Positions 4,044-49,915 of a stretch of 50,922 nt of DNA are shown here, piece after piece. Positions within the stretch are counted from its first letter, which is position 1, and every line of letters begins with the position of its first letter. Under the pieces are notes generated by a model. The model was given only the letters and a program-made list of their open reading frames with translations, was not told where the DNA came from and ran no database searches. The position numbers were made by a program, and so were the translations under genes. Origin of the DNA: Escherichia phage AV106; the sequence record OR352937.1. One strand, given 5' to 3'.

Positions 4044-4086
4044 CATTGCTTAGCAATTTATGCTATTTACTTAAGGAGTTTATACT

Positions 4087-30836: not shown

Positions 30837-30888
30837 AAATCCATCCTCTTTGTTTAACATTTAGTGCTATTTTACCATATTGCAGGCA

Positions 30889-32657: not shown

Positions 32658-32703
32658 ACTATATCAAATCACCCCACCGACGTTTTAGCAATTCGCGCTA
32701 TTT
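32658..32703 (-). promoter_or_regulatory. Dyad-motif promoter
   Basis: AATAGCGCGAATTGCTAAAAC, 22 bp, TATAGT in a hairpin loop; upstream of ORF 32425..32625. Confidence 0.55.
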
Positions 32704-33952: not shown

Positions 33953-33998
33953 ATTCTATCAAATGCCCTTGAGCAAGTTTTAGCAATTAGTGCTATTA
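33953..33998 (-). promoter_or_regulatory. Dyad-motif promoter
   Basis: AATAGCACTAATTGCTAAAAC, 22 bp, TAGAAT (preceded by TGa) in the loop of AAGGGCAT...ATGCCCTT; upstream of the HAD gene. Confidence 0.55.
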
Positions 33999-34472: not shown

Positions 34473-34518
34473 ATCATAGCGCATCCCCCTTGATAGGTTT
34501 TAGCAATTCGTGCTATTC
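34473..34518 (-). promoter_or_regulatory. Dyad-motif promoter
   Basis: AATAGCACGAATTGCTAAAAC, 22 bp, TATGAT in the loop of GGGGGA...TCCCC. Confidence 0.55.
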
Positions 34519-34866: not shown

Positions 34867-35505
34867 TTACATGATGAACATCAGCGAAATCGAAGCTACC
34901 AGGAGAACAAGAGCAATAGCTAGGCCAGACAAGTCTGCTTTCTCTTCAAACTTCATTGCTGGCTTGCGGTCAACATTAATAGGCTTGACGTTGCTAATCT
35001 TGCTGGTGTTGATCTTGCCGTTGACGCGGAAAGTGCGATTGCGCTTCTTACCGAAAGTTGCGAACTTAGTGCCGCCACTGTTCCAACGAAGGCCTTCGCC
35101 ATTGTGAGTTACGGTTGCAATGCGGTGTCGGCCCGTGTCGTCGGTCAGCGCTACAGTGTGCTTTGCGTGCTCAGTAGGCACGTCGTAGATTTTGCCAACG
35201 GTAAATTTTTTGGTGTTATCACTGATACATTCGAATTTCATAAATCTTACCTCTTTATTATGCAGTTGGTTGATTGCTTCGATTACGTCGTTAAATTTAA
35301 CACCATCCACGATTCGATGGAAGATATATTTTGAGCTACCGCCATAAGGCAGGAAAATTTCCTGATATTCGTGACGCCGTACAACGTTCACGTTGCAACC
35401 GTTCTCATCAGTAATGATGAAGCTGTCATCATTTACGCGAACACCTTTGTAAGTTTTTCCCCACTTAAAACCAGATCCGCTACTTGATACGCACTCAAAT
35501 TTCAT
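34867..35505 (-). CDS. Membrane-anchored protein with internally duplicated domain
   Basis: 212 aa; two tandem domains starting MKFECVSSSGSGFKWGKTY and MKFECISDNTKKFTVGKIY; C-terminal transmembrane helix LSGLAIALVLLVASISLMFIM; terminator downstream. Confidence 0.45.
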   Translation of the reverse strand: MKFECVSSSGSGFKWGKTYKGVRVNDDSFIITDENGCNVNVVRRHEYQEIFLPYGGSSKYIFHRIVDGVKFNDVIEAINQLHNKEVRFMKFECISDNTKKFTVGKIYDVPTEHAKHTVALTDDTGRHRIATVTHNGEGLRWNSGGTKFATFGKKRNRTFRVNGKINTSKISNVKPINVDRKPAMKFEEKADLSGLAIALVLLVASISLMFIM

Positions 35506-35789
35506 GGTCTAACCTTCCTGTAAGGCTTGATTGATAACATCACGTATTGCGTGAAGTCGCATTCTTGCTCGTCATAACCGCGATTGATGTATGGCGTCAC
35601 GTCTGTAACATCGGACACCATGGCGTGAACTTCCCACCCGGTAAACTCGTCACGATCGAACTCGCGTAGCTCAAGGATATCACCAACCTGGAAGTTGCGG
35701 TCATTGACGCGGAACTCTGCCGTTTTGGTTCCGTTCATTACACCAATGAAATGTACCGGGGAGATTTTTAACTTATGAGTTTTGCTCAT
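35502..35789 (-). CDS. ASCH/DUF3850-like small protein
   Basis: 95 aa; N-terminal HKLKISPVHFIGVMNGTKTAEFRVNDRNFQVGDILELRE matches the ASCH-like pattern. Confidence 0.45.
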   Translation of the reverse strand: MSKTHKLKISPVHFIGVMNGTKTAEFRVNDRNFQVGDILELREFDRDEFTGWEVHAMVSDVTDVTPYINRGYDEQECDFTQYVMLSIKPYRKVRP

Positions 35790-36057
35790 CTTTCTTTACC
35801 TCGAATGTCACGTTCCAGAATTTATTGCCGCATGAGTGATAGATTACGTCCTGAGACGTGAGTTCGTGCAATGCGTGCCCGATAATCTCCATTCGGTCAT
35901 TCGGCGTCAGTCCGCGAAGCGATTCACGAAGGCGTGAGGCCTTGTCGTAAATCTGCCACTGCGTGAGTCGTGCAGCCATAGCTAATTCCTTATTTGCAAA
36001 ACGGGCAGGTTGATTTATTTCCGCTGCCGCCATGATTAGGGCAGCACACTTTCTCAA
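35773..36057 (-). CDS. Hypothetical protein (start uncertain)
   Basis: 94 aa in the track with a TTG start; first ATG is 8 codons in; overlaps a 25-aa Cys-rich ORF that carries the canonical leader. Confidence 0.3.
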   Translation of the reverse strand: MRKCAALIMAAAEINQPARFANKELAMAARLTQWQIYDKASRLRESLRGLTPNDRMEIIGHALHELTSQDVIYHSCGNKFWNVTFEVKKDEQNS

Positions 36058-36107
36058 TTGGTGTCATAACTGATTCCTCTGATTGGTTGCCATGCTTCAA
36101 TAAGGCC

Positions 36108-36153
36108 ACTATATCAAATGGCCTTGCGGAAGGTTTAGCAATTCGTGCTATCG
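36108..36153 (-). promoter_or_regulatory. Dyad-motif promoter
   Basis: GATAGCACGAATTGCTAAACC, 22 bp, TATAGT (preceded by TGa) in a hairpin, then leader AACCAATCAGAGGAATCAGTT-ATG. Confidence 0.55.
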
Positions 36154-36297
36154 TTTAACGCACATAGTTTTTACTTCATATCCGAACGGCTTGTTTTCTG
36201 CAATCACCTCCCGAGCTTTTTCGCATGATTGCTGACTTTCCATGTATACGTGATCCGGCCCGGTGCTCATCAAGATAATCAAGACCCATGCAGCCAT
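36148..36297 (-). CDS. Hypothetical small protein with hydrophobic N-terminus (49 aa, absent from the ORF track)
   Basis: TAATG overlap with the upstream gene; translates MAAWVLIILMSTGPDHVYMESQQSCEKAREVIAENKPFGYEVKTMCVKR; stop codon lies inside a dyad motif. Confidence 0.3.
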   Translation of the reverse strand: MAAWVLIILMSTGPDHVYMESQQSCEKAREVIAENKPFGYEVKTMCVKR

Positions 36298-36803
36298 TAT
36301 TTCACCTCATAGCGGACGAGCGTTCCGCGCTTAATGCTGATTTCACCTGACACAGTCTTGTTCTTGAAGCCGCCGTGATGCAATAGAATCGTGATGATAT
36401 CGTCGTGCACCTCAATAGTTTTTGGTGTCGCGGTAATCTCAATCCAAGAATCGCTGCTAATCTGGACACCTTTTATCGTTGCGCTAAGTGGCATGTTCTC
36501 GATCTGAGAGCACTGTAACGATGGTTTGATTTCTGGCGTTGCAGCCTTGAATATCGAGCCTCCAATCTTCCAGCTATCATACAAGCTGTAAGCATTATTA
36601 CCTTCACTCATAATGTAGTGGTAGTCCTTATTTGGTGAGTTTTCTTTATTCACTTCGTTATGTCTGGCAATAAACCACTCCAGCTTAAGTTGAGACACCT
36701 CATCAGTGGCCCACGTTCCCTTATCTTCACTGGTGAACGTAATTTCACCACATCCCATGCTGATAAATTTGATCGGGAATTTGACATCTTCTAATTTCAA
36801 CAT
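36297..36803 (-). CDS. Hypothetical protein
   Basis: 168 aa; RBS AAGAGGAAA; preceded by dyad motif and TGgTACAAT. Confidence 0.45.
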   Translation of the reverse strand: MLKLEDVKFPIKFISMGCGEITFTSEDKGTWATDEVSQLKLEWFIARHNEVNKENSPNKDYHYIMSEGNNAYSLYDSWKIGGSIFKAATPEIKPSLQCSQIENMPLSATIKGVQISSDSWIEITATPKTIEVHDDIITILLHHGGFKNKTVSGEISIKRGTLVRYEVK

Positions 36804-36831: not shown

Positions 36832-36879
36832 GGATTGTACCAGTCAGGACGAATCCCCTTTTAACAATTCGTGCTTAGT
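36832..36879 (-). promoter_or_regulatory. Dyad-motif promoter (24-bp spacing variant)
   Basis: CTAAGCACGAATTGTTAAAAG, 24 bp, TACAAT (preceded by TGg) in the loop of GGGGATT...AATCCCC. Confidence 0.5.
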
Positions 36880-38449: not shown

Positions 38450-38495
38450 CTATAGCAAGATACCCCGATCCGTTTTTAACAATTCGTGCTATTTG
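38450..38495 (-). promoter_or_regulatory. Dyad-motif promoter
   Basis: AATAGCACGAATTGTTAAAAAC, 22 bp, TATAGT (preceded by TGc) in the loop of GGGGTA...TACCCC. Confidence 0.55.
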
Positions 38496-40427: not shown

Positions 40428-40677
40428 CTGATGGTATACAACTATTACGACAATTACAACTACCGCATAGACGAATAGCACGTTTTGCTAAAAATGGAGA
40501 TGACTACAAGGCGAACCGGGTAACACTAGATCCTCCCTCTCACAATCATTGCATTCCAAGCAACAATCACATCAACAGTTGCACATCATGCAACAATCAC
40601 ATTTCATCATTCGGGATCAATCAGGATCGCAATTATTCCAGATATTCCATTGCTGGTGGAATAATGAGCAACTATTG

Positions 40678-41909: not shown

Positions 41910-41953
41910 ATAGCACGAATTGCTAAACGCCCCGAGGGGAATCGGGGTATAGT
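41908..41953 (+). promoter_or_regulatory. Dyad-motif promoter
   Basis: AATAGCACGAATTGCTAAACG, 22 bp, TATAGT in the loop of CCCCGA...TCGGGG, then leader CATCAACCAATCAGGAGA. Confidence 0.55.
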
Positions 41954-43260: not shown

Positions 43261-43306
43261 GATAGCACGAATAGCTAAAGACAATAAATAGGGAGTAAGG
43301 TATATT
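43261..43306 (+). promoter_or_regulatory. Dyad-motif promoter
   Basis: GATAGCACGAATAGCTAAAG, 23 bp, TATATT. Confidence 0.5.
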
Positions 43307-43776: not shown

Positions 43777-43820
43777 ATAGCACGATTTGTTAATATTGCC
43801 GTAAGGTCATTTGATAAAGT
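43776..43820 (+). promoter_or_regulatory. Dyad-motif promoter
   Basis: AATAGCACGATTTGTTAAT, 22 bp, TAAAGT (preceded by TGa) in the loop of AAGGTCA...TGACCTT, then leader AACCAATCAGGAATT. Confidence 0.55.
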
Positions 43821-49547: not shown

Positions 49548-49627
49548 CCTTTATATAGAAATATTTCGCTATTAGTGCTATATCGTCTGAGATTCCGCAT
49601 TCCTTCGCGTGCTCCCAAACCTCTCGT

Positions 49628-49869: not shown

Positions 49870-49915
49870 ACTATACCCGACTTTCGCCGGGTAGTTTTAG
49901 CAATTAGTGCTGTAA
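49870..49915 (-). promoter_or_regulatory. Dyad-motif promoter
   Basis: TACAGCACTAATTGCTAAAAC, 22 bp, TATAGT in the loop of ACCCGG...CGGGT. Confidence 0.55.

Follow-up and report, generated by a model that had tools for sequence, protein, structure and literature searches.

A conserved 25-codon gene in Escherichia phage AV106 and other enterobacterial phages encodes a putative metal-knuckle microprotein

Introduction

Genes for small proteins are under-annotated in phages (PMC11323111). One locus in Escherichia phage AV106 (sequence record OR352937.1), whose 50,922 nucleotides (nt) we analysed as a single window, raises the question of which of two superimposed reading frames is a gene: a Cys-rich open reading frame (ORF) of only 25 codons, or an ORF of 94 amino acids (aa) that begins with TTG in another frame. 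A reading of this DNA made from the sequence alone, referred to here as the sequence-only reading, had left the matter between two possibilities, either a micro-ORF that truly forms the first cistron behind a leader or an overlap of the two frames. The window belongs to a T1-like phage (Drexlerviridae, Tunavirus) that over shared parts is ~93% identical to Shigella phages Sfin-1 to Sfin-6 and ~95% identical to Escherichia phage JMPW1, and its local genes lie on the minus strand, to which all window coordinates below refer unless stated otherwise. Comparison with related and unrelated phages leads us to conclude that the micro-ORF is very probably a real and independent gene, that it is the first cistron, and that it is followed without overlap by a gene of 68 aa.

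Results

The micro-gene, at 35990..36067, reads MTPIEKVCCPNHGGSGNKSTCPFCK and comprises 25 codons and a TAA stop. Its ATG is at 36067..36065, its TAA is at 35992..35990, and a Shine-Dalgarno (SD) sequence, GAGGA (36075..36079), precedes the ATG by 7 nt. The leader AACCAATCAGAGGAATCAGTT (36068..36088), the ATG and the Cys-rich frame that follows it were all located on the minus strand just as the sequence-only reading had described them. The length of such an ORF is not significant in itself; dozens of ORFs of at least 20 aa are found in every 3 kb, and the significance of this one therefore rests entirely on comparative evidence.

The Cys-rich peptide proved to have homologues, since tblastn searches with the peptide matched 138-145 phage records, nearly all of them without an annotated feature under the match. 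We inspected the DNA of more than 40 loci, drawn from GenBank phages, IMG/VR and metagenomes, and found that the ORF always has 25 codons and always begins MTPIEK. The length is exactly 25 codons in 27 of 27 distinct DNA versions of natural origin (one more version, the 28th, is an engineered truncation in phage seszw and stands outside these 27), and the 15 natural peptide variants, all of 25 aa, conform to the consensus MTPIEK[IV]CC[PQ]xHGGSG[ADNT]K[FST][ST]CP[FY]C[KR], in which 17 of the 25 residues are invariant and P10 and K25 nearly so. Variation at the DNA level follows the codons: in a set of 22 distinct DNA versions, 6 of the 25 first, 7 of the second and 24 of the third codon positions are variable, the proportion of synonymous differences (pS) is 0.76, which is saturated, and that of nonsynonymous differences (pN) is 0.085, giving a pN/pS of 0.11. 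The micro-ORFs of the window and of phage Tls, for example, are 76% identical as DNA and 84% identical as peptides. An SD lies 6-8 nt upstream of the ATG in the Tls, Sertoctavirus, Skate, Henuseptimavirus and HCF1 contexts, and one is present in all contexts except those of CfP1/Lw1 and of two loci designated L027 and L043. In our judgement this comparative evidence settles both that the ORF is coding and that it starts at the ATG. Together with the unrelated contexts in which the ORF is found and its position behind a leader module, the purifying selection evident over the 27 DNA versions bears out the first of the two possibilities raised by the sequence-only reading. The predicted tryptic peptides of the product are VCCPNHGGSGNK and STCPFCK.

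The micro-ORF occurs in at least five unrelated genomic contexts, among them those of Tunavirinae, Tempevirinae (including Tls), Skatevirus and the T4-like phages RB43, Lw1 and CfP1, and in each independent context it fills an unannotated gap of fitting size. In Tls, LL5, Stevie, Sazh, Motto and HCF1 it lies between a small Cys-rich gene (gp75 in Tls) and a dcm methylase gene; in BubbaBully and RCIP0096 it follows a DNA methyltransferase gene and is itself followed by a terminator; in Skate and seszw its start overlaps the stop of a ParB-like gene (TGATG); in the T4-like phages CfP1, Lw1 and RB43 it comes after an NMN-adenylyltransferase (NMNAT)/Nudix gene and before a terminator; and in Sertoctavirus it stands behind a hairpin and leader orthologous to those of the window. 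We note that within the Tempevirinae the micro-ORF has a DNA methyltransferase gene as its neighbour, on one side or the other, that gp75 of Tls, directly upstream, has a Cys-rich tail of its own (...NDCGC-FDPSC-RCFPF; locus positions 964-1188), and that the Motto counterpart of gp75 (locus positions 955-1188) is labelled 'putative cytosine DNA methylase' despite a length of 77 aa.

Outside phages we found no relative of the peptide in 185,579 representative bacterial and archaeal genomes, none in 5,426 complete E. coli genomes and none in 72,556 plasmids. We dropped prophage, plasmid and chromosomal origins of the micro-gene on these grounds, and the gene appears to be confined to virulent phages of Enterobacteriaceae. 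Three carriers of ~49-50 kb bear other host labels, namely ON843697 (Pseudomonas phage Motto), OR786094 (Streptococcus phage MBBL140) and MT360682 (Vibrio phage Vc1). Motto is classified in the Drexlerviridae/Tempevirinae and the other two are of T1-like size; the three labels look doubtful, unless the range of these phages is unusually broad. A query with a 41-aa in-frame translation from the window against 5.8 billion database proteins gave a single match, the over-extended 'hypothetical protein' bas12_0065 of BrunoManser, and a HMMER search of 1.84 billion representatives added two further over-extended copies along with low-complexity junk. Since these large searches returned over-extended copies alone, the peptide has no distant homologues there and is not a domain of a larger protein. 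Common gene callers impose a minimum length (~90 nt) that exceeds the 78 nt of the micro-gene, and we assume this to be why annotation has missed it.

The variety of contexts bears directly on the possibility that the micro-ORF is a regulatory upstream ORF or leader peptide, with translation itself controlling the downstream gene and the peptide having no function of its own. Such a role might be suspected from the stop codon lying 10 nt before the next ATG, from the downstream SD overlapping that stop, from the hairpin terminator found directly 3' of the micro-ORF in several other contexts and from the four Cys codons among 25. It would, however, call for constant linkage to a downstream gene and for a peptide free to drift, and what we observe is the reverse: in at least five downstream contexts the partner is variously the 68-aa gene, a 97-aa gene, dcm, gp42 or nothing but a terminator; the invariant and nearly invariant residues reach well beyond the Cys codons while synonymous sites are saturated; and in most Tunavirus phages the 68-aa gene is expressed behind this leader with no micro-ORF at all. 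We therefore consider a regulatory ORF of this kind very unlikely, and a Cys-sensing attenuator in particular was rejected on the same grounds.

The contexts speak equally to where translation starts. An in-frame GTG at 36109 would give the 39-aa protein annotated as bas12_0065 in BrunoManser, and the only database proteins that contain the peptide are extended calls of this sort (of 39 aa in BrunoManser and 44 aa in Lw1, with two metagenomic clusters giving 38 and 46 aa). These are, however, the output to be expected of a gene caller that refuses ORFs so short. The GTG has no SD and sits in the 3' arm of a conserved hairpin, the upstream extensions are unrelated from one context to another, and an extension is excluded for Tls, Motto and Skate, where the micro-ORF is immediately preceded by in-frame stops or by other genes, whereas the MTPIEK start, with an SD upstream, is common to all contexts. 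There is accordingly only a slim chance that the 39-aa form is the real product.

What the 25 residues might do is suggested by the motifs that do not vary, C9-P-x-H12-G and C21-P-x-C24, which are joined by a Gly-rich turn, GGSGxK, and accompanied by C8 and the N-terminal MTPIEK. Two knuckles of the rubredoxin type are what one would expect around a single Zn(Cys3His) or Zn(Cys4) centre, and we think it probable, judging by this layout, that the micro-protein binds metal; the 'mini zinc ribbon' that the sequence-only reading had suggested is plausible. A Walker-A reading of GGSGxK[ST] was rejected because the spacing is wrong and the peptide too small. The peptide is also Cys-rich, very short and strongly conserved, and CP[FY]C is identical to the active-site motif of glutaredoxins, features that a modified or secreted precursor (resembling a ribosomally synthesised and post-translationally modified peptide) or a redox-active mini-thiol peptide would share. 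We give these alternatives little credence, as the contexts have in common no modifying enzyme, no transporter and no leader/core layout, the peptide carries no signal sequence, and paired CPx[C/H] knuckles around a Gly-rich turn are the classic layout of a metal knuckle. A profile search of the PDB returned only a chance 12-residue match to ZFAT, and in the literature we found no paper that contains the peptide string and nothing on small proteins in Drexlerviridae.

The sequence-only reading had called the leader canonical. This holds for the core of the leader and for the module to which it belongs, both of which recur ahead of other genes of the phage, and fails for the full 21-mer, which is unique in the window even when 3 mismatches are allowed. 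The recurring part is CAATCAG followed by an SD: CAATCAGAGGAA is found 22 times at no more than 2 mismatches (5.2 expected), and aCCAATCAG-SD-ATG stands ahead of at least 8 real ORFs, the core ACCAATCAG and the SD being common to the leader of the micro-gene and those of other genes. Upstream of the leader lies a conserved 9-bp hairpin, AAGGCCAUU/AGUGGCCUU (36102..36125), with an extended -10-like sequence, TGATATAGT, in its loop and 3' arm (36108..36116), and upstream of the hairpin lies a repeat box, ATAGCACGAATTGCTAAA, which has no mismatch here (36134..36151) and holds the TAG stop of an upstream 49-aa gene. The box has 14 copies in the window, against 0.08 expected, always oriented with the genes and often including the TAG stop of the preceding one. 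Ten are on the minus strand (4049-4066, 30853-30870, 32684-32701, 33979-33996, 34499-34516, 36134-36151, 36860-36877, 38475-38492, 49564-49581 and 49896-49913) and four on the plus strand (40475-40492, 41910-41927, 43262-43279 and 43777-43794). The whole module spans ~85 nt and has a fixed order, in which the box (ATAGCAC...TTGCTAAA) is followed by a stable hairpin whose loop or 3' arm holds a TGnTATAGT-like extended -10 and then by ...ATCAACCAATCAG, an SD and an ATG; window-wide, the leader stretch between hairpin and SD in the module copies reads ...CAACCAATCAG. From the start of the box to the ATG is 84 nt for the micro-ORF and 74-84 nt in 9 modules, and the ATG of the micro-ORF thus occupies the first-cistron position of such a module.

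The box is the same element as a 21-nt intergenic repeat, aaATAGCACnnnTTGnTAAAA, which was described in phage TLS ~76 nt upstream of start codons, with its function stated to be unknown, and to which similar repeats were noted in T1, Rtp and Rogue1 (PMC11447400); the copies in the window agree with the 'DR' of TLS in orientation and in distance to the start codon. That description seems to include neither the covarying hairpin linked to the box nor the CAATCAG leader (PMC11447400). In Sertoctavirus the hairpin carries a compensatory change of G:C to C:G, and the other modules have analogous hairpins that differ in sequence and keep the pairing. As to what the hairpin and its -10-like element may do, a promoter, a terminator and a processing site are all candidates. 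The record of SA12KD annotates the hairpin as a terminator, and our scan for consensus promoters and terminators found nothing on the gene strand and no U-tract terminator at the hairpin. TTGCTA and the -10-like hexamer are separated by 21-23 nt, and by 22 nt in the majority of copies, a spacing too long for a sigma-70 -35/-10 pair.

Intergenic regulatory surroundings so rich in repeats and hairpins, and a possible GCUGCC...GGCAGC stem inside the ORF, are what could speak for a chance ORF within a conserved non-coding element, whether an RNA structure or a protein-binding DNA site, a notion that we hold to be extremely improbable given that variation is strictly 3-nt periodic with third positions free and amino acids kept, that the internal stem is lost in the Tls and Skate versions, that the 25-codon length never varies among the natural versions and that the region folds no better than shuffled sequence (z -1.23).

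The gene downstream of the micro-gene, at 35773..35979, encodes a 68-aa protein that begins MAARLTQWQIYDK... and has no assigned function. The form that starts at ATG 35979 matches PHROG 18601 (profile length 68) over its full length (1-68/68, E 1.6e-51), and its homologues in Sfin-5, JMPW1 and SA12KD are annotated as 207-bp coding sequences. Its own SD, AAGGA (35991..35987), is spaced 7 nt from the ATG and overlaps the last two bases of the TAA of the micro-gene. Alignment of the window with Sfin-5, JMPW1 and SA12KD defines an 88-bp presence/absence block, made up of the micro-gene and a 10-nt spacer (35980..36067), that is missing from most Tunavirus genomes. JMPW1 and SA12KD lack exactly the window stretch 36067..35980, and in them the same leader runs straight into the ATG-GCT-ACA-CGA of the 68-aa gene; in annotated records the gap measures 168 nt with the block and 80 nt without it.

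These observations settle the status of the 94-aa frame. The ORF described by the sequence-only reading, with its TTG start in a different frame and no obvious ribosome-binding site, is indeed found at 36057..35773, where the nearest SD, GAGGA, is ~18 nt upstream; it is the longest mechanical ORF of the region and predicts a protein of ~10.7 kDa that contains MRKCAALIMAAAEINQPARFANKELA. Its first 26 codons, however, fall inside the 88-bp block, and because most Tunavirus phages lack that block, so that their homologous loci cannot hold a 26-aa extension, the TTG extension cannot belong to the conserved protein. That the 94-aa ORF is a real gene, either overlapping the micro-ORF or making it spurious, has next to no chance of being right, since in addition it is the ATG 35979 form that matches the PHROG profile from end to end, the TTG has no SD whereas ATG 35979 has a good one, and substitutions in the region obey the frame of the micro-ORF. 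As judged from these alignments, the arrangement is one of two consecutive cistrons, the second beginning 10 nt past the stop of the first, and the 94-aa ORF is an over-extended version of the 68-aa gene; the overlap of two genes entertained by the sequence-only reading does not hold. A programmed frameshift joining the micro-ORF to the 68-aa gene, whose frames differ by 1, was rejected because other contexts have no downstream partner. Farther downstream, the 68-aa gene is followed by a gene for a 95-aa ASCH/DUF3850 protein (35502-35789; PF12961, E 1.2e-15; PHROG 986, 'RNA-binding protein'), which shares its first 17 nt with the end of the 68-aa gene and is annotated in a shorter form in the records of Sfin-4 and Sfin-5.

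The boundaries of the block coincide with a 14-nt direct repeat. The first copy, AGGAATCAGTTATG (36065..36078), contains the SD, spacer and ATG of the micro-gene, and the second, AGGAATTAGCTATG (35977..35990), contains those of the 68-aa gene, its first base being the last A of the micro-gene TAA. The copies are 88 nt apart and identical at 12 of 14 positions in the window and at 14 of 14 in Sfin-5, and phages of the JMPW1 type have one copy. The block may have arisen either way, by a precise deletion between the repeats in the phages that lack it or by an insertion that duplicated the ribosome-binding site in those that have it.

The hairpin and leader are 98.7% identical within Tunavirus and 94% identical to those of Sertoctavirus, whose flanking genes are ~60% identical. 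Phasing of single-nucleotide polymorphisms places the micro-gene of the window in a Sfin-like recombination patch (35962..36492) that is set in a JMPW1-like background. From the 3' end of a 168-aa gene the patch extends across the 49-aa gene, the module and the micro-gene into the first ~18 nt of the 68-aa gene. Thirty-three consecutive sites from 36492 to 36271 are of the Sfin type; a mixed stretch follows, with 4 Sfin-type sites (36215..36193) and 3 JMPW1-type sites (36228; 36178..36160); the last 2 Sfin-type sites are at 35965..35962; and from 35938 downward 63 of 66 sites are of the JMPW1 type. The 88-bp block itself has no counterpart in JMPW1 with which it could be phased. The presence of a Sfin-type patch in JMPW1-like surroundings argues that the micro-gene moves within Tunavirus by homologous recombination in conserved flanks.

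Evidence on the importance of the micro-gene for growth comes from Salmonella phage seszw, for which genome-reduced mutants were made by CRISPR-based iterative deletion (PMC9825161). In seszw 'gene 17' is annotated from a GTG inside the micro-ORF, while its homologue in Skate is annotated from an ATG after the micro-ORF. As the called start of gene 17 lies inside the micro-ORF, deletions of gene 17 truncate the micro-ORF after residue 20: in the CiPGr deletion mutants (MZ375302 and MZ375320; locus positions 1501-1578) MTPIEKICCPRHGGSGTKST-KQHMIKVK replaces ...KST-CPYCK, and many deposited mutants are alike. The truncated mutants are viable, indicating that growth on the laboratory host does not require the second knuckle.

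Discussion

Small phage genes that escape annotation are known, as are putative metal-knuckle microproteins; the peptide family itself is undescribed. As to function, we tentatively suggest that the micro-protein could be an accessory factor directed at the host, where it would bind a conserved enterobacterial target in takeover or in counter-defence. Arguing for such a role are the near-frozen sequence, the transfer between phage families, the restriction to the lytic phages of one host family and the dispensability in the laboratory, as well as the location of the gene among accessory genes (DNA methylases, NAD-salvage and ParB-like genes). A bolder version of this suggestion, which we regard as speculative and rather doubtful, is that the product is a 25-aa Cys3His 'micro-moron', among the smallest autonomous metal-knuckle proteins, traded among lytic phages of Enterobacteriaceae from at least three lineages (Drexlerviridae, Skatevirus and Straboviridae) to neutralise one conserved host protein or defence component. 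If that were so, the near-frozen sequence would mark a precise target interface, and Tls and RB43 would each carry a factor that has so far been invisible.

In the mechanism that we envisage, the micro-gene would be transcribed as the first cistron behind the module of box, hairpin, leader and SD. Ribosomes would initiate at ATG 36067 by means of the SD GAGGA and stop at TAA 35990, and the 68-aa gene would then be translated from the duplicated SD and ATG 10 nt further on, either independently or by re-initiation. The peptide would fold round one Zn2+ held by the two knuckles, C9-P-x-H12-G and C21-P-x-C24, with MTPIEK and C8 staying exposed, and the micro-gene would spread as a mini-cassette through recombination in its conserved flanks.

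Several points weigh against this picture of a translated, metal-binding and host-directed micro-protein. We found neither ribosome-profiling nor mass-spectrometry data on translation of the micro-ORF. The conserved ATG has no SD in CfP1 and Lw1, where an in-frame ATG 5 codons upstream may serve instead; this upstream ATG (MKILT-MTPIEK...; locus positions 1186-1200 and 1486-1500) lies 7 nt after GGGA/GGAC, and these T4-like carriers may produce a 30-aa form. We infer metal binding from the motifs, among which C8, C9 and H12 are all candidate ligands, and the peptide has no match in Pfam (E<=10), PHROG or the PDB and one sub-threshold match in NCBIfam. The AlphaFold2 model, made for the 39-aa GTG form, is of low confidence (predicted local distance difference test score 65.7) and has one short helix. 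Work on haloarchaeal C(P)XCG proteins has made the points that the motif does not guarantee zinc binding and that AlphaFold2 cannot decide the question (PMC11241148). Lastly, the neighbouring genes differ between contexts, which makes guilt by association a weak argument for counter-defence.

The existence of the gene has consequences of several kinds. A functional gene that is too short for gene callers has gone unannotated in ~140 phage records, including those of the textbook phages Tls and RB43, and its extreme conservation in lytic phages unrelated to one another suggests one conserved target in the host and so offers a handle on a new phage-host interaction. Metal binding, structure and targets are cheap to pursue, because a peptide of 25 residues can be made by chemical synthesis. 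Annotations stand to be corrected, both for the start of the 68-aa gene and for the over-extended neighbouring calls in seszw, Lw1, BrunoManser and BubbaBully, and the engineered deletions of gene 17 in seszw can now be seen to have truncated a second gene unknowingly. The locus also links the modules of 21-nt repeat, hairpin and leader, themselves unexplained, to the way in which T1-like phages gain and lose small genes.

Among known systems, the peptide resembles the C(P)XCG zinc-finger microproteins of Haloferax volcanii, such as HVO_2753 and HVO_0758 (PMC11241148, PMC10716476, PMC6562870), in being a tiny stand-alone protein with two knuckles of the C-P-x-C type predicted for one metal, and those proteins too are typically missed or uncharacterised and function through binding partners. 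It differs from them in its length (25 aa as against roughly 40-70 aa), in its source (lytic phages as against an archaeon) and in showing no sequence homology. Its first knuckle is C-P-x-H-G and its second, C-P-[FY]-C-[KR], ends the protein without a Gly, and it thus matches the C(P)XCG motif only in a relaxed form.

A second likeness is to the zinc centre of DnaJ, which is built from CxxCxGxG motifs (PF00684) and is also seen in small DnaJ-like zinc proteins such as anti-TRAP of B. subtilis. If His is allowed for the second Cys, the phage C9-P-N-H12-G-G-S-G conforms to CxxCxGxG, and T-C-P-F-C resembles TCPxC; the phage peptide nevertheless has a single centre, and its second motif lacks GxG. 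With one degenerate motif and no Pfam match at E<=10, the peptide does not belong to PF00684, and hhalign against the Cys-rich region of E. coli DnaJ aligned 6 columns at a probability of 21%, a similarity at the level of the knuckle. NrdD, the class III ribonucleotide reductase, has in its C-terminal region a metal site of the Cys/His type just before the glycyl-radical loop. The 30-aa variant of the CfP1 type aligned to positions 622-647 of 684 of the corresponding NCBIfam model, NF006126, with an E-value of 0.2 and 9.8 bits against a cut-off of 548 bits; fifteen 25-aa variants did not reproduce this match and the PDB gave no match to NrdD, so that we treat the zinc region of NrdD as a lead to the ligand set and not as evidence of homology.

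With respect to function, one parallel is Stp of phage T4, a functional phage peptide of 26 aa that is not Cys-rich. Stp illustrates that a peptide of ~25 residues, made by a lytic coliphage that does not need it in the laboratory, may work by attaching to a protein of the host, and the micro-protein might likewise have a host partner; it shares no sequence or motif similarity with Stp, and its own target is only postulated. With respect to genome organisation, the mobile PeSL (promoter-early/stem-loop) cassettes of T4-type phages (PMC2839356, PMC4122927) likewise place a composite conserved regulatory module beside small ORFs that are swapped, gained or lost. PeSLs are defined in myoviruses and have other sequences, the activity of the T1-type module is putative, and the recombination breakpoints in the window fall in flanking coding sequence (~36492 and ~35950) and not strictly in the module. 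By analogy, we take the PeSL cassette to be the closest described counterpart of the arrangement in AV106, in which a conserved module is coupled to small ORFs that are exchanged beside it.

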